A stretch of 32,000 nt of DNA, taken from the NCBI RefSeq assembly GCF_000757865.1, contig NZ_CP007754.1, forward strand, positions 30,001-62,000, in the 5' to 3' direction. The position numbers and the translations under genes are program-made. The stretch is from Prochlorococcus sp. MIT 0801 (GTDB lineage: Bacteria; Cyanobacteriota; Cyanobacteriia; PCC-6307; Cyanobiaceae). Of the stretch, positions 7,108-21,465 are shown one piece after another. Under the pieces are notes generated by a model. The model was not told the origin of the DNA and made no database searches. It worked only from the letters and a program-made list of their open reading frames with translations. The first letter of the stretch is position 1. Each line of letters begins with the position of its first letter.

Positions 7108-7130
7108 GCACATTTTCACCGTCTCCATGA

Positions 7131-7160
7131 AGAAATCGTAGAAAGATGCTTTTCTCTACA
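7131..7160 (+). repeat. Boundary motif AGAAATCGTAGAAAGATGCTTTTCTCTACA (imperfect inverted repeat CGTAGA.A / T.TCTACA)
   Basis: One of six full copies. The others are at 9649-9674, 10486-10518, 12892-12925, 15914-15945 and 18295-18325. Half-sites CGATTTCTCTA(C/T) are at 9727-9738 and 18378-18389. Confidence 0.8.
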
Positions 7161-7284: not shown

Positions 7285-9240
7285 TTAGGAGGCGATGTCT
7301 TTGTATTTATCAGTTTGGGTAAGGATTTCAATCGCAGGTTTCAGCATATCTTTATAGTTCTTCCATCCACCAATTGATTTTGAATTGATTGGGGAACGAA
7401 CTTGAACACTACTTGCCGTAGATACTGAGCGTGGATTTAGATGCGGTGTTAAAAATGAATCTTGCCATTTCCACCCTAACCAAGAGATCAAGGATTTAAT
7501 TTCTTCCTTAGGATTGTTGACTAATGAGTCATAATTTAGGTCATATATTTTTGATTTAAATCTATTCTTATATTTTGTCATTAAGTCTTCTTGATCTAAA
7601 TAAACTCTTGTGCAATCAACCAAGCAAGAGGAATAATCATTTCCATTAGCAAAATGTGTTCTGTAAATTGAAAGAATATTATCTAAAGGATTTCTATAGC
7701 AGTGAATAATGTATGCGTTGGGTATATGACAATGAATAATACCTGCGTATTGGTAGTTGTATAACCATTTGTTGGTTGTGATATTCATTTCCGTCTTATT
7801 ATTTACTTTTTTCTTATATAAGTCAGCAAGATTTATATCTTGTTTAGACTTCTTATACTCAAGGAACGATTCCTCAAGAATATTAATTTCACCTAGATCA
7901 TATACATCATTGCTCATACTAAGAATTGATTCCAATAATGTAGAACCACATCTAGGCATTCCTACAATAAAAATACTCTGAGAAGAATTTCTTGATGCTT
8001 TTTTATTAATTTCTTTCTTATCAGACTCAATAAGTAATGCTTTAGATTTATTGAACCTTATTTTAGGTTTAGATGGGTTAATATCAAGTTTTAATTTATT
8101 CGCTAATTTAAGGTATCTAGAACTTTCCTTATAATTTTTTTCCTTATGCAAAATATTTGCTATTGCGAAGTAAATATCAACTTGATTCTTTTGTAATTTA
8201 TTTTTTAAAATATTTTTTGATAAGAGTTGATCCTGCCATATCTTATTCTCATCAGAATAGTTAATTAATGATAGTGAATAGTATGCTTTTGCGAAATCAG
8301 GATTAAGTTCAATTGCTTTGCGGTATGACAATTCTGCGTCTTGTAATTTACCAAGATCTCTCAATACATTCCCCAGATTGGAATGCGCCATTGCGAAATC
8401 AGGTTTGAGTGCAATTGCTTTGCGTTGAGACAATTCTGCATCTTGTAATTTGCCGAGATCTCTCAATACATTCCCCAGATTGGAATGCGCCATTGCGTAA
8501 TCAGGTTTGAGTGCAATTGCTTTGCGGTATGACAATTCTGCATCTTGTAATTTGCCAAGATCATTCAATAAGACTCCCAGATTGGAATGCGCCATTGCGT
8601 AATCAGGTTTGAGTGCAATTGCTTTGCGGTATGACAATTCTGCATCTTGTAATTTGCCAAGATCTCTCAATACATTCCCCAGATTGGAATGCGCCATTGC
8701 GAAATCAGGTTTGAGTGCAATTGCTTTGCGGTATGACAATTCTGCATCTTGTAATTTGCCAAGATCTCTCAATACATTCCCCAGATTGGAATGCGCCATT
8801 GCGTAATCAGGTTTGAGTGCAATTGCTTTGCGGTATGACAATTCTGCATCTTGTAATTTGCCAAGATCTCTCAATACATTCCCCAGATTGGAATGTGCCA
8901 TTACGAAATCAGGTTTGAGTGCAATTGCTTTGCGAGTAGATAATTCTGCTTCTTGTAATTTGCCAAGATCTTTTAATATGATTCCATAATTAGAAAAAAC
9001 TCGGTGATCATTAAAACCTTGATTAATAAAATATTGATAATATTTTATTGCTTCTGAAATATTTCCTTTTACATTAAACTGAATTGCTTGATTAATTATT
9101 TTTTCTTGAGAAAGTTTAGAAATAGTATTGATATTAATAGTAAGATTTTCTTTGATTTCTCCTGAAGCAAATGGAACTGGAAATGTTTTTACTTCAGTGA
9201 CTTTCTTCTTTTCTCCTCCTTCTTGAGTAGAACTATCCAT
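7285..9240 (-). CDS. TPR-repeat protein with a C-terminal sulfotransferase domain
   Basis: About 8 TPR units (AMAHSNLGNVLRDLGKLQDAELSYRKAIALKPDY). The PAPS 5'-phosphosulfate loop is IFIVGMPRCGSTLLESIL, and the C-terminal ...RSPINSKSIGGWKNY is typical of TPR-sulfotransferases. Starts with ATG at 9240. Confidence 0.85.
   Translation of the reverse strand: MDSSTQEGGEKKKVTEVKTFPVPFASGEIKENLTININTISKLSQEKIINQAIQFNVKGNISEAIKYYQYFINQGFNDHRVFSNYGIILKDLGKLQEAELSTRKAIALKPDFVMAHSNLGNVLRDLGKLQDAELSYRKAIALKPDYAMAHSNLGNVLRDLGKLQDAELSYRKAIALKPDFAMAHSNLGNVLRDLGKLQDAELSYRKAIALKPDYAMAHSNLGVLLNDLGKLQDAELSYRKAIALKPDYAMAHSNLGNVLRDLGKLQDAELSQRKAIALKPDFAMAHSNLGNVLRDLGKLQDAELSYRKAIELNPDFAKAYYSLSLINYSDENKIWQDQLLSKNILKNKLQKNQVDIYFAIANILHKEKNYKESSRYLKLANKLKLDINPSKPKIRFNKSKALLIESDKKEINKKASRNSSQSIFIVGMPRCGSTLLESILSMSNDVYDLGEINILEESFLEYKKSKQDINLADLYKKKVNNKTEMNITTNKWLYNYQYAGIIHCHIPNAYIIHCYRNPLDNILSIYRTHFANGNDYSSCLVDCTRVYLDQEDLMTKYKNRFKSKIYDLNYDSLVNNPKEEIKSLISWLGWKWQDSFLTPHLNPRSVSTASSVQVRSPINSKSIGGWKNYKDMLKPAIEILTQTDKYKDIAS
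8293..9006 (-). repeat. Tandem 102-bp (34-codon) TPR coding repeats: 7 units, six of them nearly identical at nucleotide level
   Basis: Visible periodicity. Adjacent units around 8609-8806 are almost base-for-base identical. Confidence 0.9.
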
Positions 9241-9580: not shown

Positions 9581-9784
9581 GAAATTTAAGTGACAGAGTG
9601 ACAGGGATTTGAAGAGTAAGTTCCACGTGTCACCTTCTCTGTAAAGACATCGTAGATAGTTCATTTTCTCTACACCTATTATTTTTAGTCAAATTACGAT
9701 GGTTCTTAATTTTGAAAATCAATTGACGATTTCTCTACGGATTTAAAAAATTAATCAGACCCAAAAAGTACATTGCATGAAAAA

Positions 9785-9808: not shown

Positions 9809-9956
9809 TTTGAGTTCAGCACTCATAATTCCAACTGAACTTTCCATCCGTACTAACCAACTTTGACCTACTGGAACGAAAGTGCTAGAACTCCTGATTT
9901 CTTTTTAATTCTTCTAAGATTCAAATTCAATCGTTAGAAGTACCTGATTAGGTCTT

Positions 9957-10148
9957 ATGGCAAAAACTGAAAATGATCTTGATATTTACTATGCAGTTGG
10001 GAATGCCAATACTTCTAGGCAAGAAACTGAGATCGGAGAAATTATTAAAAAACGAAATTCATTGGGATGGAAATTAGTCTCTACCAGTACTGCTGTGGTT
10101 GATACGTCTAATCAATTCTCTAATTTGTATCTTTTTTGGGAAAAATAA
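9957..10148 (+). CDS. Hypothetical small protein
   Basis: 63-aa ORF downstream of the hairpin module. The GWKLVS...LYLFWEK pattern is loosely like small alpha/beta DUF proteins. Size is within chance expectation. Confidence 0.3.
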   Translation: MAKTENDLDIYYAVGNANTSRQETEIGEIIKKRNSLGWKLVSTSTAVVDTSNQFSNLYLFWEK

Positions 10149-10295
10149 TATGAGTAAGGGAAAAGAGAAATTCAACGTGACGCAGGGTATGACTCTTTTG
10201 CTGCTAAAAAAACTTTCTTTGCCTGCAAACGTAGTTTTTCTAATGATTCTCTTTATTACTAACCCATCAAACAAGATTGGTTATGAGGATGAGTA

Positions 10296-10362
10296 GGCAC
10301 AACAAAACCTGACCTAAAGCAGTTCTTTTTGAAGATCAGTCGCAAGTGTTTCCTTGTTCCTT
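10296..10362 (-). ncRNA. Decayed Yfr2-like sRNA remnant
   Basis: The plus strand GGCACAACAAAACCTGACC...GATCAGTCGCAAGTGTTTCCTTGTTCC is colinear with 14821-14890. The terminator stem is degraded and the GUGAGGAG 5' motif is missing. Confidence 0.4.
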
Positions 10363-10556
10363 ATTGACTACTTTTTTAAGATGACTACTTATTCCTTTTC
10401 CAGTATTTCACTTCGTCCTCCTTTGAAAAGTCCATATGATAAAGAACAAAAGTTTATTTCTGCTCTATGCAACTATGCATATTTTCGTAGAGAAATCGTT
10501 GAAAGGTGTTTTTCTCTGAAATATTCAATATTTTTATACTTGTTAATTAGTCAGAT

Positions 10557-12737
10557 TTACGATTTACAAACCCAGAACTGATACATACCTTCGAAGGTAT
10601 TGGGATGTTTTTCTTCAAACTTTGCCCAGTTTTGTAAGTTCGTTTGTTTTTTATCTTCTGGGAAATATTGCTCATAGATCGATTTAATTTGTTTTTGAAG
10701 CAAGAATCCAAGAAACTTTAATTCATTAGATTTGAGAATTTCTTGTAGTTGCTTAATGTTGAATCTATGTTCCTGTGCATGAAAACAAAGATCACGGCAA
10801 GAAGAAAGTGTATAGAAATCAGAACTCTTTGTTAGAGAGTTTATTTCTGGTGTTTTTCCGGAAAAGATAGTTTCTCTAAAATTACGAATATGGTCCTCAT
10901 TTGTTTGAAGTTTTTTGCTGGCAATATAATTCCTTGCTTTAATAATATTTTGTCTTGCTAATTCGCTATATAAACCCAATTTAAGAAATCCATTAGTTTT
11001 TAAAACCCCTAATAATGCTTTCAAACCTTTTGAGGGTTCATCCATATGATGTAAAACCCCTGAACATAAAATGATATCAAATTTTTCCTCTAGTAAATTA
11101 ACTTCTAAGATATCCATTTGAATCAATTTAACATTATTGATTTCAAGTTCTTTTATTTTTCTTTGGGCATAAGAAAGACTAGACAAACTTAAATCTATGC
11201 CAGTAATCGTAGCATGGTTATAAATTTTCGCATGTAAAATCTGTTGACCTGTTCCACACCCAGCAATTAGAACTTTTAATTGACTATTTTCAGATTTGAA
11301 ATTGATAGAACTAGGTTTTATTTCATTATTTATTGCCTGTGTAATAGATATCTTTTGACTTTCTAAATTATTCCCATACCTCCATCTAGGATATGGATTT
11401 TTCTCATATTGTGATTTTACTTTTCGAGAAATATAATCATTTATTCTACCTAGTTTTTTTATATTCTTAGACAAGTCAATTTCTTCTAGAGGTTCTGATA
11501 TTTGTATGTTTATTAATTCTTTAAAACTTTGATTTGAAGAATTAAAAGATTTCAAAGATGGTATCCTATCCAGGAGTTTATATAAAGAAAAATAACAAGA
11601 TAAAATTGAAATATTTATCTCATTTAATTCATTATTTTGGCATCTTTTGATGATATTATTTAGAGATATATTTTCTTCTTCAGTTAATGAGAAAATATAT
11701 TCGTTAAGGAAGCATTGTTTTCCTAAAGTAATAATAAATTGTAATTCATAGTAATTTATTTCTTTTTTATTCTTTGCAATTTTAATGCATAAATACTTTC
11801 TTAAATTCGTTAGCAATTTCTCAAATCTAATATCCTGAAAAGTTATTTTTTTAAGGGCATTGATTATGACTTTATTATTAATTATTAATTCTATCTGGGA
11901 ACATTCTGAATCTAATTTTTCTAGTTTACTGATTATTTCATTGTTATATACATAGTTAAATGAGTTTATTAATTCTTTATGAGATATATCATTTCTTTCT
12001 AGTAGAAGATTTAATATAGTTTTCACTTTTGATTTGCTTAACTTTGACGTATCAAAATCTCTAAGAAATTCCGTTATGAAGGAATAAATATTAGGATATG
12101 TTGGATTAATTTTAATTATTTGCAAGTAAGAATCAAATGCTTCTTCTAACTTGCCAACATCTGTCAATATTATCCCCAGATTTAAATGTGCTTCTGCGAA
12201 ATTAGGATTCAGTTCAATTGCTTTGAGGTATGAGATTTCTGCGTCTTGTAATTTGCCAAGATCTGTCAATGTTATTCCCAGATTGTAATGTGCTTCTGCG
12301 AAATCAGGTTTAATATCAATTGCTTTTCGGTGGCATAATTCTGCATCTTTTAATTTGCCAAGATCTCTCAATGTTATTCCTAGATTGGAACGTGCTTCTG
12401 CGAAATCAGGTTTAATATCAATTGCTTTTCGGTGGCATAATTCCGCATCTTTTAATTTCCCAAGATCTCTCAATATCACTCCATAATTAGAAAAAACTTT
12501 GTGATCCTTATAACCTTGATTAATAAAAAGTTGATAATATTTTACCGCTTCTGAAACGTTTCCCTGTAAATGAAACTGGATTGCTTGATTAATGATTTGT
12601 TCTTTAGATGGTTTAGAAGAAGTATTTGTATTAATAGTAAGATTTTCTTTGATTTTTCCTAAATCAAATGCAACTGGGAATGTTTTCACCTCGGACATCT
12701 TCTTCTTTCCTTCATCTTCTTGACTAGAAAGATCCAT
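10557..12737 (-). CDS. TPR-repeat protein with a C-terminal class-I SAM-dependent methyltransferase domain
   Basis: 4 TPR units. Motif I is VLIAGCGTGQQ and motif II/III is DIILCSGVLHHMDEP. The track starts at a TTG at 12776. I prefer the ATG at 12737 (MDLSSQEDEGKKK...), which aligns with the paralog start MDSSTQEGGEKKK. Confidence 0.85.
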   Translation of the reverse strand: MDLSSQEDEGKKKMSEVKTFPVAFDLGKIKENLTINTNTSSKPSKEQIINQAIQFHLQGNVSEAVKYYQLFINQGYKDHKVFSNYGVILRDLGKLKDAELCHRKAIDIKPDFAEARSNLGITLRDLGKLKDAELCHRKAIDIKPDFAEAHYNLGITLTDLGKLQDAEISYLKAIELNPNFAEAHLNLGIILTDVGKLEEAFDSYLQIIKINPTYPNIYSFITEFLRDFDTSKLSKSKVKTILNLLLERNDISHKELINSFNYVYNNEIISKLEKLDSECSQIELIINNKVIINALKKITFQDIRFEKLLTNLRKYLCIKIAKNKKEINYYELQFIITLGKQCFLNEYIFSLTEEENISLNNIIKRCQNNELNEINISILSCYFSLYKLLDRIPSLKSFNSSNQSFKELINIQISEPLEEIDLSKNIKKLGRINDYISRKVKSQYEKNPYPRWRYGNNLESQKISITQAINNEIKPSSINFKSENSQLKVLIAGCGTGQQILHAKIYNHATITGIDLSLSSLSYAQRKIKELEINNVKLIQMDILEVNLLEEKFDIILCSGVLHHMDEPSKGLKALLGVLKTNGFLKLGLYSELARQNIIKARNYIASKKLQTNEDHIRNFRETIFSGKTPEINSLTKSSDFYTLSSCRDLCFHAQEHRFNIKQLQEILKSNELKFLGFLLQKQIKSIYEQYFPEDKKQTNLQNWAKFEEKHPNTFEGMYQFWVCKS
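12096..12503 (-). repeat. Tandem 102-bp TPR coding repeats (4 units)
   Basis: Periodicity in both DNA and protein (DLGKLKDAELCHRKAIDIKPDFAEA occurs twice, almost identically). Confidence 0.85.
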
Positions 12738-12970
12738 CTTCTCTCCTGGTTCTTTTGACTTTACTACTAATCTCAACTCTTATGACTTCTTTCTGAAATC
12801 ATATACCACCTATAGAGCAAGAATAAAAAGTAGATCTCTATATTATTTCTTTACGTATATGACCAGCTGACAAAAACATAGATGGCCACATAAATCGTAG
12901 AGAAATAATATACTACTTCTCTACATTTTATAGTTCCACACGAAAAAACCTTAAAAGTTATGGCATTTTC

Positions 12971-14532: not shown

Positions 14533-14559
14533 TTGAATTCATTTAAATTGCATTAAGAA

Positions 14560-14634
14560 AGGGACCCTGCTGCTTCAGCGACCTTGAGTCCCTCTCTTCA
14601 TTGACAGAACGAATTTTGGTAAGGAGTTGTTCTG
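14560..14634. ncRNA. Hairpin plus stem-loop module, variant copy: stem CAGAAC/GTTCTG with loop GGTAAGGAGTT (plus strand) or AACTCCTTACC (minus strand)
   Basis: Colinear with 15011-15083 and 21351-21421. The strand of expression is undetermined. Confidence 0.4.
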
Positions 14635-14824
14635 CTTTTCCTTTTCTAATCAATTTCACAAAGGTTCTGCATCCGAAAAAATTCCTAATTAGATATCGTC
14701 CTCACTGTTTCCGAATGGGTTGTATCTGATATCAAAAATCAAAACTACTGCTGTGCTTAAAAGCAGTAATCCAAAAACAACTTGGGGAGGTGGAAATATC
14801 ATTAGACCACTCTAGAAAAGGCAC

Positions 14825-14920
14825 AAAAAAACCGCCCAGTTCTGTTAGGGCGGTTTCTTTGTGAGATCAGGCGCAAGTGTTTCCTTGTTTCCACTGCGGA
14901 GGATCTCAACTCCTCACAAA
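14825..14920 (-). ncRNA. Yfr2-family-like sRNA
   Basis: Minus-strand reading: a TAAGTT -10-like box, then UGUGAGGAGUUGAGAUCCUCCGCAGUGGAAACAAGGAAACACUUGCGCCUGAUCUCAC, then the terminator AACCGCCC-N10-GGGCGGUUUUUUU. Length is about 95 nt. The GUGAGGAGU seed and GGAAACA-rich loop match my recollection of Yfr2-5. Confidence 0.6.
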
Positions 14921-15010
14921 ATAAACTTAATCAACATGACTCTTAGAAGGAATCCTGAGTATTTGAGTTCTTGAACTGTCACATATGACAATTCTTGTAC
15001 ATAAGGTATT

Positions 15011-15126
15011 AAAAAAGCACCCCACTTAAGCGAAGTTGAGTGCCTTTTTATAACAGAACTATTGTGTGAGGAGTTATTCTGTTATTTCATTTCTACTCCT
15101 GCATGCACCTTTTGTCACTACTAAAA
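15011..15126. ncRNA. Hairpin plus stem-loop module: stem AACAGAA/TTCTGTT with loop carrying TGTGTGAGGAGTT (plus strand) or AACTCCTCACACA (minus strand)
   Basis: A bidirectional-looking terminator hairpin at 15017-15043 is flanked by A- and T-runs. A conserved TTTTGTCACTACTAAAA box is at 15110-15126. Read on the minus strand, it contains the exact ACUCCUCACAC motif known from Yfr1. Confidence 0.45.
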
Positions 15127-15781: not shown

Positions 15782-15913
15782 TACTGACTACTAAAACGTA
15801 GTTATAGACTTAAAATATATATTCCCCGTGAGTTCTCTGTGAACGTGAACTGAGGAAGTGACAAGGGTTTTCAAGTGCTCTGTTACTCGTGAGACTTTGT
15901 CACCTACTCTGCA

Positions 15914-15945
15914 GAGAAATCGTAGAAAGATGGTTTTTCTCTACA
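15914..15945 (+). repeat. Boundary motif GAGAAATCGTAGAAAGATGGTTTTTCTCTACA
   Basis: Direct reading. It holds the same position relative to the TPR-gene 3' tail as the copies at 7131 and 10486. Confidence 0.8.
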
Positions 15946-16084: not shown

Positions 16085-18007
16085 TTAAATTCCTATTAAT
16101 TTCACCGCAACTTGCTTCGTCATATAGGAGATCGCCAAAACTTCATAACTTAAATTATTATTAGAGCAAAATTCATTGAGTGCTTTATATTCATCCTGCT
16201 CCCAATTTTTATTAATAATAAACTCATCAAATATTAAAATTGTATCTTTATCTATGACAGACTTTGAATAGTTCAAGGCACAAATAGTAGAAGAATATAG
16301 ATCGGCATCAAAATTGATTAGTGATGCGATAGGTCTAGGTTTGGAATAAAAAGTTGGAAGTGTTTCTTCAAATTTACCTGCTATAAATGTTCCGCCATCA
16401 ATGTTGGGAATGACTCCATCTGCTGAATAAAATCCTTGTTTCTCTTCATGCCAATCTTCTGGTAAGCCTTGAAAAGTATCAAATCCATAACCTTTTTTGA
16501 AGGTATTAATTAAGTACTGAAAGGATTCACCTCGCCAAACACCAAACTCATAGAAAGGGCGATCTGTTTTGCTTTTATTAATCATACTGTCAAATAATGC
16601 CCATCTATGAAAAAACAATTCAGGTAACTTTGGTAAAGTAGAAACCCATTTTAGGGAACGGATTGTAGGATGATCTTTATAAATTGATTGTATAAGATTA
16701 TCAAATAATGATTGATAACCTTGATGTAATTTTAGACCACTTAGAGAGAGTTTTGCTTCTAAATGATTTTCATCTATTTTCAAGCATTGATTAATCCTTT
16801 CTTCTGCTTCCTCAATAGTATTGGCTAATCCATATAAATTCCAAGCAGCTTCAGCGAAATCAGGTTTAAGTTGAATTGCTTTGCGAAATGACAATTCTGC
16901 TTCTTGTAATTTACCAAGATCACTCAATATGATGCCCAGATTGGAATGCGCCTCTGCGTAATCAGGATTAATTTCAATTGCTTTGCGATATGAGATTTCT
17001 GCTTCTTGTAATTTGCCAATATTATTTAATATGTTTCCCATATTTAGATGCGCCATTGCGAAATCAGGTTTAAGTTGAATTGCTTTGCGAAATGACGATT
17101 CTGCTTCTTGCAATTTGCCAAGATCTTTCAATATGTTTCCTAGATTGGAATGCGCCTCTGCGAAATCAGGATTAATTTCAATTGCTTTGCGATATGAGAT
17201 TTCTGCTTCTTGGAATTTGCAAAGATCTCTCGAAATGGTTCCCAGATTGTAATGCGCCTCTGCGAAATCAGGATTAATTTCAATTGCTTTGCGAAATGAC
17301 AATTCTGCTTCTTGCAATTTGCCAAGATCTCTCGAAATGGTTCCCAGATTGTAATGCGCCTCTGCGAAATCAGGATTAATTTCAATTGCTTTGCGAAATG
17401 ACAATTCTGCTTCTTGCAATTTGCCAAGATCTTTCAATATGTTTCCTAGATTGGAATGCGCCTCTGCGAAATCAGGATTAATTTCAATTGCTTTGCGATA
17501 TGAGATTTCTGCTTCTTGCAATTTGCCAAGATCTTTCAATATGACTCCCAGATTGGAATGCGCCATAGCGCAATTAGGATTAATTTCAATTGCTTTACGA
17601 GTAGATAATTCTGCTTCTTGTAATTTGCCAACATTTTTTAATATGTCTCCCAAATTTACATACGCATCTCTGTACTCAGGATTAATTTCAATTGCTTTGC
17701 GAAATGACAATTCTGCTTCTTGTAATTTGCCTAGAGTTTTTAATATGACTCCATAATTACAAAAAACTTTGTGGTGAGAGAAACCTTCATTAATGAAATA
17801 TTGATAATATTTTTCTGCTTCTGAAATGTTTCCTTGTGAATGAAACTTAAATGCTTGATTTATTATTTGTTCTTTAGAAGGTTTCGAAGGCGTGTTAGTG
17901 GAAATAGAGATATTCTCTTTAATTTCTCCTAAACTAAATGGAACTGGGAATGTTGTTATTTCAGTGACTTTTTTTTTAACCTCTTTTATTGGACCGGATT
18001 CTTCCAC
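16085..18007 (-). CDS. TPR-repeat protein with a C-terminal TylF/macrocin-O-methyltransferase-like domain
   Basis: 9 TPR units. The C-terminal FYEFGVWRGESF...GFDTFQGLPEDW...LINFDADLYSSTICALN...ILIFDEF matches the TylF-family pattern. The start codon at 18007 is GTG, at the position aligned with the ATG of the paralogs. Confidence 0.8.
   Translation of the reverse strand: MEESGPIKEVKKKVTEITTFPVPFSLGEIKENISISTNTPSKPSKEQIINQAFKFHSQGNISEAEKYYQYFINEGFSHHKVFCNYGVILKTLGKLQEAELSFRKAIEINPEYRDAYVNLGDILKNVGKLQEAELSTRKAIEINPNCAMAHSNLGVILKDLGKLQEAEISYRKAIEINPDFAEAHSNLGNILKDLGKLQEAELSFRKAIEINPDFAEAHYNLGTISRDLGKLQEAELSFRKAIEINPDFAEAHYNLGTISRDLCKFQEAEISYRKAIEINPDFAEAHSNLGNILKDLGKLQEAESSFRKAIQLKPDFAMAHLNMGNILNNIGKLQEAEISYRKAIEINPDYAEAHSNLGIILSDLGKLQEAELSFRKAIQLKPDFAEAAWNLYGLANTIEEAEERINQCLKIDENHLEAKLSLSGLKLHQGYQSLFDNLIQSIYKDHPTIRSLKWVSTLPKLPELFFHRWALFDSMINKSKTDRPFYEFGVWRGESFQYLINTFKKGYGFDTFQGLPEDWHEEKQGFYSADGVIPNIDGGTFIAGKFEETLPTFYSKPRPIASLINFDADLYSSTICALNYSKSVIDKDTILIFDEFIINKNWEQDEYKALNEFCSNNNLSYEVLAISYMTKQVAVKLIGI
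16856..17773 (-). repeat. Tandem 102-bp TPR coding repeats (9 units, several nearly identical)
   Basis: Periodicity. For example, AEAHYNLGTISRDL.K.QEAE.S.RKAIEINPDF occurs twice in succession. Confidence 0.9.
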
Positions 18008-18226: not shown

Positions 18227-18294
18227 TTTAGGGCAGTCAAACGTTGTCCACTACTCAAAATATACTTCCACTTCCACTTGTCACCGTTTCTATT

Positions 18295-18325
18295 GAGAAA
18301 TCGTAGAAAGTCGTTTTTCTCTACA
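18295..18325 (+). repeat. Boundary motif GAGAAATCGTAGAAAGTCGTTTTTCTCTACA
   Basis: Direct reading. Confidence 0.8.
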
Positions 18326-21042: not shown

Positions 21043-21164
21043 AAGTGATTTGGTTAATGTTTAAATTTAATTGATTTGGTGGTTTAATTATTTCATAAAA
21101 ATGTCGTGAATACCGTTCTACTTGCTTGTTTTGGATGTTGTTTTTTCTAAATTTAAATAATGTC

Positions 21165-21258
21165 ATAAAAACCGCGTCGTTATGACCAAGGCGGTTTTTA
21201 TGAGATCGGGCGCAAGTGTTTCCTTGTCTCCACTGTGGATGATCTCAACTCCTCATTA
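21165..21258 (-). ncRNA. Yfr2-family-like sRNA (second full copy)
   Basis: Minus-strand reading: a TAAATT -10-like box, then AUGAGGAGUUGAGAUCAUCCACAGUGGAGACAAGGAAACACUUGCGCCCGAUCUCAU, then the terminator AAAAACCGC-N15-GCGGUUUUU. It is colinear with 14825-14920. Confidence 0.6.
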
Positions 21259-21350
21259 AAAATTTATTTGCACATTTGATGAACAAACTCAAATATTGGC
21301 AGGTTGCTTTATTGATTGTCATATGTCAGCATTCGTAAAAGTAGTCATTA

Positions 21351-21465
21351 AAAAAGCACCCTCCTTGCAAGAAGATGGGTGCTTTTTTAAACAGAACGAT
21401 TTGGTGAGGAGTTGTCTTGTTAAATTTATTTCTACTCTAATGAAGAGTTTTTGTCACTACTAAAA
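21351..21465. ncRNA. Hairpin plus stem-loop module: loop TTGGTGAGGAGTT (plus strand) or AACTCCTCACCAA (minus strand)
   Basis: Terminator-like hairpin GCACCC-N15-GGGTGC at 21356-21382, stem AACAGAAC/GTCTTGTT at 21390-21421 and the box TTTTTGTCACTACTAAAA at 21448-21465. Its spacing to the Yfr2-like gene is the same as in the 14.8-15.1 kb copy. Confidence 0.45.

Follow-up and report, generated by a model that had tools for sequence, protein, structure and literature searches.

Why should a genome carry, side by side and in two copies, what looks like a small RNA (sRNA) gene and its own complement? The question is raised by a 32,000-nucleotide stretch of Prochlorococcus sp. MIT 0801 (NZ_CP007754.1, positions 30,001 to 62,000; hereafter the window, with coordinates counted from its first letter), in which a composite unit of about 300 bp occurs at 14821-15126 (copy A) and again at 21160-21465 (copy B), both read on the minus strand. 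With a probability of roughly 0.88, each composite is a tandem of two independent minus-strand sRNA genes of low-light clade I (LLI) Prochlorococcus, a Yfr10-type gene followed by a Yfr2-family gene. An earlier interpretation made from the letters alone (the sequence-only reading) had supposed that a physically linked pair of this kind was undescribed. In fact, Yfr10, Yfr12 and Yfr18 were reported in 2008 to adjoin Yfr2, Yfr4 and Yfr5 directly in strain MED4, with 5′ ends able to pair (Steglich 2008, PMC2518516). The linked sRNA/anti-sRNA arrangement, its complementarity and its antagonism are thus already published for MED4, in 2008 and 2019.

In MED4, Yfr10 carries ACUCCUCACAC, with which the 5′ ends of the adjoining Yfr2, Yfr4 and Yfr5 can base-pair; to pair, Yfr10 and Yfr2 have to accommodate one mismatch and a bulged C (PMC2518516). 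A joint precursor of the two RNAs, 270 nt long, has been reported, and both genes, like many sRNA genes of that strain, lie in genomic island 1 (PMC2518516). The main species are separate RNAs of 78 nt and ~90 nt, which respond differently to light and nitrogen (Lambrecht 2019, PMC6778093). Yfr1 and Yfr10 co-purify with Yfr2 in pull-down experiments, Yfr2 relieves repression by Yfr1 in a GFP reporter assay, and Yfr2 is shielded from RNase E by Yfr1 or Yfr10 (PMC6778093). The sponge or antagonist relationship proposed in the sequence-only reading therefore coincides with an experimentally backed model. Yfr10 homologs are given in the supplement of the latter paper for MED4, MIT9313, SS120, WH8102, Synechocystis and Nostoc (PMC6778093). 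In the available portions of this literature, the published adjacency concerns high-light (HL) strains only, and LLI-clade members are not mentioned there.

Both composites follow one order on the minus strand: a conserved block (TTTTAGTAGTGACAAAA...GAGTAGAAAT), a hairpin with AACUCCUCAC in its loop, a G+C-rich hairpin followed by U6, a diverged spacer, and the Yfr2-like gene. The two hairpins are referred to below as the module. On the plus strand AACTCCTCA stands at 14908 and 21247, and its complement lies within the module hairpins at 15067-15074 and 21405-21412. The motif ACTCCTCA has five occurrences in the window where chance would give 0.84, a count reached in 0 of 100 shuffles, and four of the five make up two opposed pairs inside the composites. 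A repeat finder returned the same copy-to-copy offset of 6339 bp for the Yfr2 part and for the module part, so the internal spacing is identical in both copies despite the diverged spacer. Overall, the composites are 68% identical, the sRNA parts being far better conserved than the spacer. Re-reading of the sequence agrees with the duplicated unit and the motif positions as they had been described. The fixed distance between the Yfr2 motif and the A-run of the module is likewise borne out, but it is 103 bp in both copies rather than 103-104 bp, as the A-run of copy B begins at 21350 and not at 21351.

The downstream gene of each composite belongs to the Yfr2 family. Both copies exceed the gathering score of 41 bits of the Rfam family Cyano-1 (RF01701), Yfr2-A with 64.2 bits at 14859-14923 and Yfr2-B with 45.8 bits at 21198-21262, on the minus strand and over model positions 1-69 in either case, and they are the only Rfam matches at gathering thresholds. 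Yfr2-A opens with a single-stranded 5′ end, (U)GUGAGGAGUU, which is followed by a stem-loop bearing GGAAACAAGGAAACA and by a terminator. Its fold has an energy of -35.8 kcal/mol (z -4.3), and the 10 nt at the 5′ end are unpaired in the minimum-energy structure. The 5′ end of Yfr2-B reads AUGAGGAGUUG, and this copy bears one change per motif, GGAGACA in the first loop motif and AUGAGGAG at the 5′ end. Among the six LLI copies compared, these substitutions are found in Yfr2-B only, at otherwise unchanged positions. The fold of Yfr2-B is weaker (z -2.95), as is its terminator, and the gene may be a decaying or differently regulated paralog. A further trace of the family, at 10319-10361 on the minus strand, is a 5′-truncated remnant (AGGAACAAGGAAACACUUGCGACUGAUCUUC...) in which the GUGAGGAG end is missing, as is the 5′ strand of the stem; locus L089 (AG-311-D23) has an intact Yfr2 at the homologous position. 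This remnant is all that was found of Yfr2 in the region 9900-10700, which gave no Rfam match.

The upstream module is of the Yfr10 type. A covariance model, R1, was built from 20 HL-clade Yfr10 homologs (hairpin plus terminator upstream of Yfr2) that were drawn from a public-genome scan for the Yfr2 loop motif, with the window excluded. Run over the whole window on both strands with filters off, R1 matches modules A and B at full length and on the minus strand only, with E-values of about 8e-8 and about 2e-4 that are rough owing to a shortened calibration (scores in Table 1). These are its sole significant matches in the 32 kb, the next reaching 16.7 bits. At permissive thresholds the Rfam Yfr10 model (RF02362) also aligns with both modules over its full length, model positions 1-78, with E-values of 4e-4 for module A (601-nt search) and 0.05 for module B. 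The consensus of that model (AUCAGAaACUCCUC...) resembles the sampled HL-type sequences and not the LLI type.

The predicted structures of the two modules share one plan. In module A the loop of a 10-bp hairpin contains AAUAACUCCUCACACAAUAG, and the terminator hairpin that comes next leads into a U6 tail (-24.3 kcal/mol, z -6.5); the exact 11-mer ACUCCUCACAC, the Yfr1 motif, sits in the 16-nt loop. In module B the loop reads CAACUCCUCACCAAAUCG, with the motif in the form ACUCCUCACCA; the 5′ hairpin is weaker, and the terminator and U6 are again present (-20.2 kcal/mol, z -4.0). Both terminators are strong, with a 12-13-bp stem plus U6, and terminator-like sites were called on the minus strand 3′ of both modules. 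Across 73 related modules, 98.7% of cells are paired over the two helices, compared with at most 56% in slid controls, and double changes occur in 11 of the 14 pairs. These counts come from a model-guided alignment. A plain MAFFT alignment of HL and low-light (LL) modules anchors on the motif and leaves the 5′ stems out of register, and RNAalifold recovered only part of the terminator from it.

Identity with Yfr1 itself was considered for the module and rejected, as the motif occupies the loop of a hairpin and the flanking genes are Yfr2 and those for tetratricopeptide repeat (TPR) proteins, an ion channel and a penicillin-binding protein. No family named Yfr1 is among the Rfam matches up to E = 10 for either module. 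The label 'Yfr1 mimic' used in the sequence-only reading is apt functionally, in that the module shares the ACUCCUCACAC seed, but the module is not Yfr1.

Upstream of each module lies a putative promoter block, which is conserved in both window copies and in three LLI loci of other genomes (L084, L095 and L045). In copy A a TAGAAA box stands ~7 nt 5′ of the hairpin, at the place of TAGATT in HL homologs. The spacer of this copy contains the palindrome AATTGTCATATGTGACAGTT, whose proximal edge is ~57 nt upstream of the G of GUGAGGAG, the presumed start of Yfr2-A. CGRE1, the site of the GntR regulator PMM1637, has the form xAAC-N13/14-GTTx with its proximal edge at -55 to -57, and is present in many, not all, members of the Yfr2 family (PMC6191309). 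The palindrome agrees with this description in position and form, and related palindromes occur at the same place in HL and LL loci. Copy B retains the proximal half only; a MED4 promoter with a half motif, that of yfr5, is not bound by PMM1637 (PMC6191309). Judged from its sequence, the palindrome of copy A may act as a CGRE1 element bound by a PMM1637-type regulator.

Table 1. Features of the two composites and of the adjoining Yfr10-like element (window coordinates).
Feature	Coordinates	Strand	Basis
Yfr2-family sRNA, copy A	14825..14918	-	Rfam Cyano-1 match and fold
Yfr2-family sRNA, copy B	21165..21256	-	Rfam Cyano-1 match; weaker fold
Yfr10-type sRNA, copy A	15010..15085	-	Model R1, 48.1 bits; Rfam Yfr10, 37.8 bits; fold; terminator-like site
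Yfr10-type sRNA, copy B	21350..21422	-	Model R1, 31.4 bits; Rfam Yfr10, 27.9 bits; fold; terminator-like site
Putative promoter block of Yfr10-type gene, copy A	15090..15126	-	TTTTAGTAGTGACAAAA and -10-like TAGAAA at 15095-15090; conservation and position
Putative promoter block of Yfr10-type gene, copy B	21429..21465	-	Aligns with copy A, L084 and L095
CGRE1-like palindrome AATTGTCATATGTGACAGTT	14974..14993		Spacer of copy A, putative Yfr2-A promoter; read from sequence
Third Yfr10-like gene (tentative)	14555..14636	-	Variant motif AACUCCUUACC in hairpin loop, and terminator; sequence, fold and conservation

Each module carries the complement of the 5′ end of its Yfr2 neighbour, as the sequence-only reading had noticed: the Yfr1 motif stands on one side and its complement on the other. 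The duplex had been put at 10 bp in either composite. This holds for copy B (UGAGGAGUUG : CAACUCCUCA); in copy A the longest perfect duplex is 11 bp (UGUGAGGAGUU : AACUCCUCACA), provided that the U before GUGAGG is transcribed, and a G.U pair extends it. Whole-molecule RNAduplex predictions are uninformative, as the A/U tails of the terminators dominate the pairing, and seed-region duplexes and cofolding were used instead. In cofolding, the 5′ end of Yfr2 is predicted to open the Yfr10-type hairpin and to pair with the loop motif, with a gain of -6 to -15 kcal/mol. Complementarity to the neighbouring Yfr2 is uninterrupted over 10-12 nt in the LLI type, whereas the mean of the longest perfect run is about 6 nt in the HL pairs sampled.

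Does each loop then fit its own neighbour in particular? The sequence-only reading had suggested so, pointing to an extra G:C pair in copy B. The match to the local partner is literally true but not specific, for module B is at least as good a partner for Yfr2-A as the neighbouring module A, both as a seed duplex (-20.1 versus -18.8 kcal/mol) and in cofolding gain (-15.4 versus -10.4 kcal/mol). The C of the extra pair belongs to CAACUCC, the consensus present in five of six LLI modules, while copy A has the derived UAACUCC, which yields a G.U pair. Because the C is consensus and the G opposite it is invariant among the six LLI Yfr2 copies compared, the extra pair is not compensatory. A G-to-A change at the 5′ end of Yfr2-B moreover loses a pair with a C that both modules possess. 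Among the sampled loci, neighbours are no better matched than permuted partners (p 0.28 and 0.50 for LL, 0.08 and 0.38 for HL), and partner-specific co-evolution was rejected on this permutation null. The lack of specific co-adaptation between neighbours speaks for co-localisation or co-expression as the role of adjacency, and against private partner recognition.

The linkage of the two genes and their spacing are conserved well beyond the window. The linkage frequencies describe a sample: the genome scan listed at least 120 stretches, about half of them chance matches in unrelated bacteria, and the matches listed include 63 Prochlorococcus and Synechococcus Yfr2 genes with enough flanking sequence, the two window copies among them. 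Linkage was scored as ACUCCUCAC, one mismatch allowed, on the same strand and 100-260 nt upstream. By this measure 42 of the 63 genes have the motif, compared with 2 in the opposite-strand control and 0 in the downstream control; the linked genes comprise 34 of 44 HL-type and 8 of 19 LL-type genes. The distance from this motif to the downstream Yfr2 loop motif is 181 and 182 nt in the window copies, 156-185 nt in the LLI loci L045, L084, L095 and L060, and 165-205 nt in HL loci. Metagenomes add 69 contigs with the LL-type composite and 60 distinct module sequences, nearly all of which fold into the same two hairpins. The gap in these composites has its mode at 146-150 nt and measures 144-150 nt in 51 of the 69. 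The sequence-only reading had named a lack of conserved linkage and spacing elsewhere as a possible objection, and the 42 linked genes and 69 contigs speak against it.

Other arrangements of Yfr10-type units came to light in the same material. The metagenome contigs L165, L166, L186 and L224 each carry two Yfr10-type modules 1-5 kb apart, and arrays of such units seem common in LL-type populations. L083 (AG-409-L14) and L103 (AG-363-P19) show a different LL-type layout, probably the form that the tandem takes in another clade: the spacer is shorter, and only 124 nt separate the Yfr2 loop motif from a Yfr10-like hairpin, ACGACACUCCUCACACAAGUUUGUCG, upstream of it.

The two composites have a long history in this lineage. 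The window, with a G+C content of about 34-35%, is 85-97% identical to segments of MIT1012, which belongs to clade LLI, and 92% identical over 8 kb to a single-cell contig, AG-402-B05, in a block that contains copy B. The composites fall into two orthology groups, one made up of copy A, L045 and L060 and the other of copy B, L084 and L095, with identities of 73-79% within groups and 63-72% between them. As identity is higher within than between the groups, the paralogs arose before these LLI genomes diverged. A tRNA search of the window was negative, as was a scan of ten open reading frames for matches to integrase families. These results run counter to the delivery by an island that the sequence-only reading envisaged, and recent duplication or island delivery was rejected on the orthology groups and synteny. 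Phage carriage was also considered. IMG/VR holds 43 exact matches to the Yfr2 loop motif, none of them a Yfr2 gene; they are chance matches that all lack Yfr2 context, and the idea was rejected. As judged from their sequences, the two copies are paralogs of long standing that have kept their positions, and they show no sign of a mobile element.

If the composites are tandems of independent genes, their working can be sketched from MED4. The Yfr10-type gene would be expressed from its own promoter as an RNA whose 5′ hairpin exposes the Yfr1 motif AACUCCUCAC(AC) and which ends at an intrinsic terminator. The Yfr2-family gene would have a promoter with the CGRE1-like palindrome, and its RNA an unpaired 5′ end, (U)GUGAGGAGUUG, the complement of the Yfr1 motif. 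By homology with MED4, the two RNAs would pair through these motifs and both regulators would be neutralised. Yfr2 would mask the seed by which Yfr1 and Yfr10 act on target mRNAs, and would itself be shielded from RNase E while bound. Such pairing may join a light-responsive input through Yfr10 with the nitrogen and high-light input that drives Yfr2 via the GntR regulator, and adjacency probably raises the local chance of pairing. Read-through of the Yfr10 terminator could yield a transcript of ~260 nt whose motifs pair intramolecularly. On the analogy of MED4, the interaction, the antagonism, the RNase E protection and the joint precursor would all be expected in the LLI strain.

Other explanations have to be weighed against this tandem. 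The idea that the module is read from the plus strand, or is just a bidirectional terminator, is scarcely credible; it would then carry GUGAGGAGUU as Yfr2 does and could not be its pairing partner. Its terminator hairpin lies between A6 and T6 and could work both ways, and the RNA of copy B folds better on the plus strand (-27.9 versus -20.2 kcal/mol), so folding energy alone leaves the strand unsettled. In that direction, however, the terminator precedes the motif hairpin and the transcript would end before the motif. The full-length matches of R1 and of the Rfam Yfr10 model are confined to the minus strand, plus-strand overlaps scoring 16 bits or less with either, and the conserved promoter-like block stands on the minus-strand 5′ side. 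The MED4 Yfr10 homolog was mapped by 5′-RACE (rapid amplification of cDNA ends) and Northern blot, and its orientation corresponds to the minus strand here (PMC2518516). Model matches, gene order, upstream block and MED4 homology together fix the minus strand for both genes, as the sequence-only reading had assumed. Hardly more probable is a recent duplication by way of a mobile genomic island, in which each sRNA would have co-evolved with its own decoy. The region around copy A is indeed variable, containing three TPR-domain genes and intergenic blocks that recur, and MED4 keeps many sRNA genes, Yfr10 and Yfr2 included, in island 1 (PMC2518516). Yet the two orthology groups are older than the divergence of these genomes, copy B sits in the 8-kb block shared with AG-402-B05, neither a tRNA in the window nor an integrase in the ten reading frames scanned nor a Yfr2 gene in IMG/VR came to light, and neighbouring partners match no better than exchanged ones. 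This explanation is largely refuted.

More substance attaches to the view that the unit acts mainly as one ~260-nt precursor of Yfr10, spacer and Yfr2 that folds on itself, although it too is unlikely. The genes would then not be independent, their motifs would be paired in cis beforehand, and processing would release the motifs or keep them inactive. The 261-nt co-transcript is predicted to fold with -88.4 kcal/mol (z -6.9), with a long-range helix joining both motifs; the 270-nt precursor of MED4 offers a precedent (PMC2518516), and the gap keeps its length within a few nucleotides across most LL-type composites. Against it stand the strength of the module terminators and the make-up of the spacer, which has a -10-like box of its own and a CGRE1-like element whose distance from the presumed Yfr2 start agrees with the published one. 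The separate main species of MED4, with their differing responses to light and nitrogen, also tell against it.

Two independent genes in tandem thus remain the preferred reading, and the identity, strand and structure of both genes, their complementarity and the conservation of their linkage and spacing are direct observations of this analysis. Some results nevertheless weigh against it. Neither module reaches the gathering score of the Rfam Yfr10 family, 43 bits. The promoters are putative, based on conservation and position, and the transcription starts likewise; a simple sigma-70 scan called no minus-strand promoter for either gene. The alignment behind the pair counts was fitted to the model and so leans towards the structure. 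About one third of the sampled Yfr2 genes have no module upstream, and adjacency is therefore not required for Yfr2 function. Finally, copy B has substitutions at conserved positions of both genes and half a CGRE1-like site, and it may be weakly functional or decaying.

Directly downstream of Yfr2-A lies a third element of similar build. It has a TAGAAA box, a hairpin CAGAAC/GUUCUG and a loop, AACUCCUUACCAAAAUUC, whose seed has U in place of C and can still form a G.U pair with Yfr2 there. Its fold (-29.3 kcal/mol) has the two-hairpin layout of the Yfr10-type modules. The element and its box are kept in MIT1012 (L060) and in seven metagenome contigs, and the terminator of L224 shows a compensatory change. 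R1 gives it 13.6 bits only (E about 1), and its membership of the Yfr10 type is tentative. A bolder proposal takes the LLI locus as an array, Yfr10, Yfr2 and the Yfr10 variant with its C-to-U seed, with uninterrupted complementarity of 11-12 nt, tight spacing and a partly self-paired precursor; this is a doubtful prospect, with odds even lower than those of the single self-folding precursor. If true, the array precursor would deliver antagonists in fixed proportion, pre-neutralised and freed by RNase processing, and such a mechanism would exceed the remark in the literature that proximity enhances interaction.

The surroundings of copy A show repetition of another kind. Among the flanking genes are three for TPR-repeat proteins, one for an ion channel and one for a penicillin-binding protein. 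The TPR paralogs, at 7285-9240, 10557-12776 and 16085-18007 (all on the minus strand), are built of 34-residue repeats (102-nt DNA repeats, 19 copies in total); their fusion partner, where there is one, is a sulfotransferase or a methyltransferase domain. The region looks like a segmentally amplified variable region. Around these genes lie intergenic repeat blocks whose families are conserved. For instance, a 48-nt block ending GAGAAATCGTAGAAAG..TTTTCTCTACA occurs at 7113-7160, 9627-9674, 10473-10520, 15897-15944 and 18278-18325. Further repeat pairs are found at 6970-7051/13044-13125 and 9474-9553/18180-18259, and one intergenic family is an 82-nt pair that is 93% identical. These blocks could be terminators, promoters or further sRNA genes.

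The discovery value of the locus is small, as it amounts to a rediscovery of the known Yfr10-Yfr2 pair in the LLI lineage. It does establish that the arrangement is not confined to high-light clades, being present at two conserved LLI loci and on 69 marine metagenome contigs, and that the Rfam Yfr10 model misses these LLI members. The longer unbroken complementarity of LL-type pairs relative to HL pairs and the conserved third Yfr10-like variant are new.

The closest known counterparts are Yfr10, Yfr12 and Yfr18 of MED4. Like them, the modules of the window are sRNAs of ~75 nt with ACUCCUCACAC in a 5′ hairpin loop and an intrinsic terminator, they lie directly upstream of a Yfr2-family gene on the same strand with the -10 box in the same place, and there are several Yfr10-Yfr2 pairs per genome. 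The third element and MED4 Yfr12 are both variants with a mutated motif. In contrast to MED4 Yfr10, the stem here is AACAGAA/UUCUGUU instead of AUCAGAA/UUCUGAU, the loop has two extra bases on its 5′ side, and the sequence is of an LLI-clade type that falls below the Rfam threshold. The complementarity is also unbroken over 10-12 nt, whereas in sampled HL pairs its longest perfect run reaches ~6 nt on average and in MED4 it is interrupted by a bulge and a mismatch.

The downstream genes resemble the Yfr2-5 family in the anti-Yfr1 motif of their unpaired 5′ end, the stem-loop with its two GGAAACA motifs and the terminator; copy A also has the CGRE1-like palindrome, its proximal edge ~57 nt upstream of the presumed start, while copy B departs from the family in GGAGACA, AUGAGGAG and its half palindrome. 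Like Yfr1, the modules have the ACUCCUCACAC seed and are thus able to pair with the 5′ end of Yfr2. In Yfr1, however, two stem-loops are joined by a single-stranded linker that holds the motif, and the gene keeps its conserved place between guaB and trxA, whereas here the motif lies in a hairpin loop and the neighbour is Yfr2. A more distant parallel is GlmY/GlmZ, cited as an sRNA-sRNA analogy (PMC2518516). In both systems one small RNA governs, or here would govern, the activity or stability of another. GlmY works through protein titration and not through base pairing. Unlike that system, the predicted pairing of the Yfr10-type and Yfr2-family RNAs is direct, seed to seed, and their genes are adjacent.

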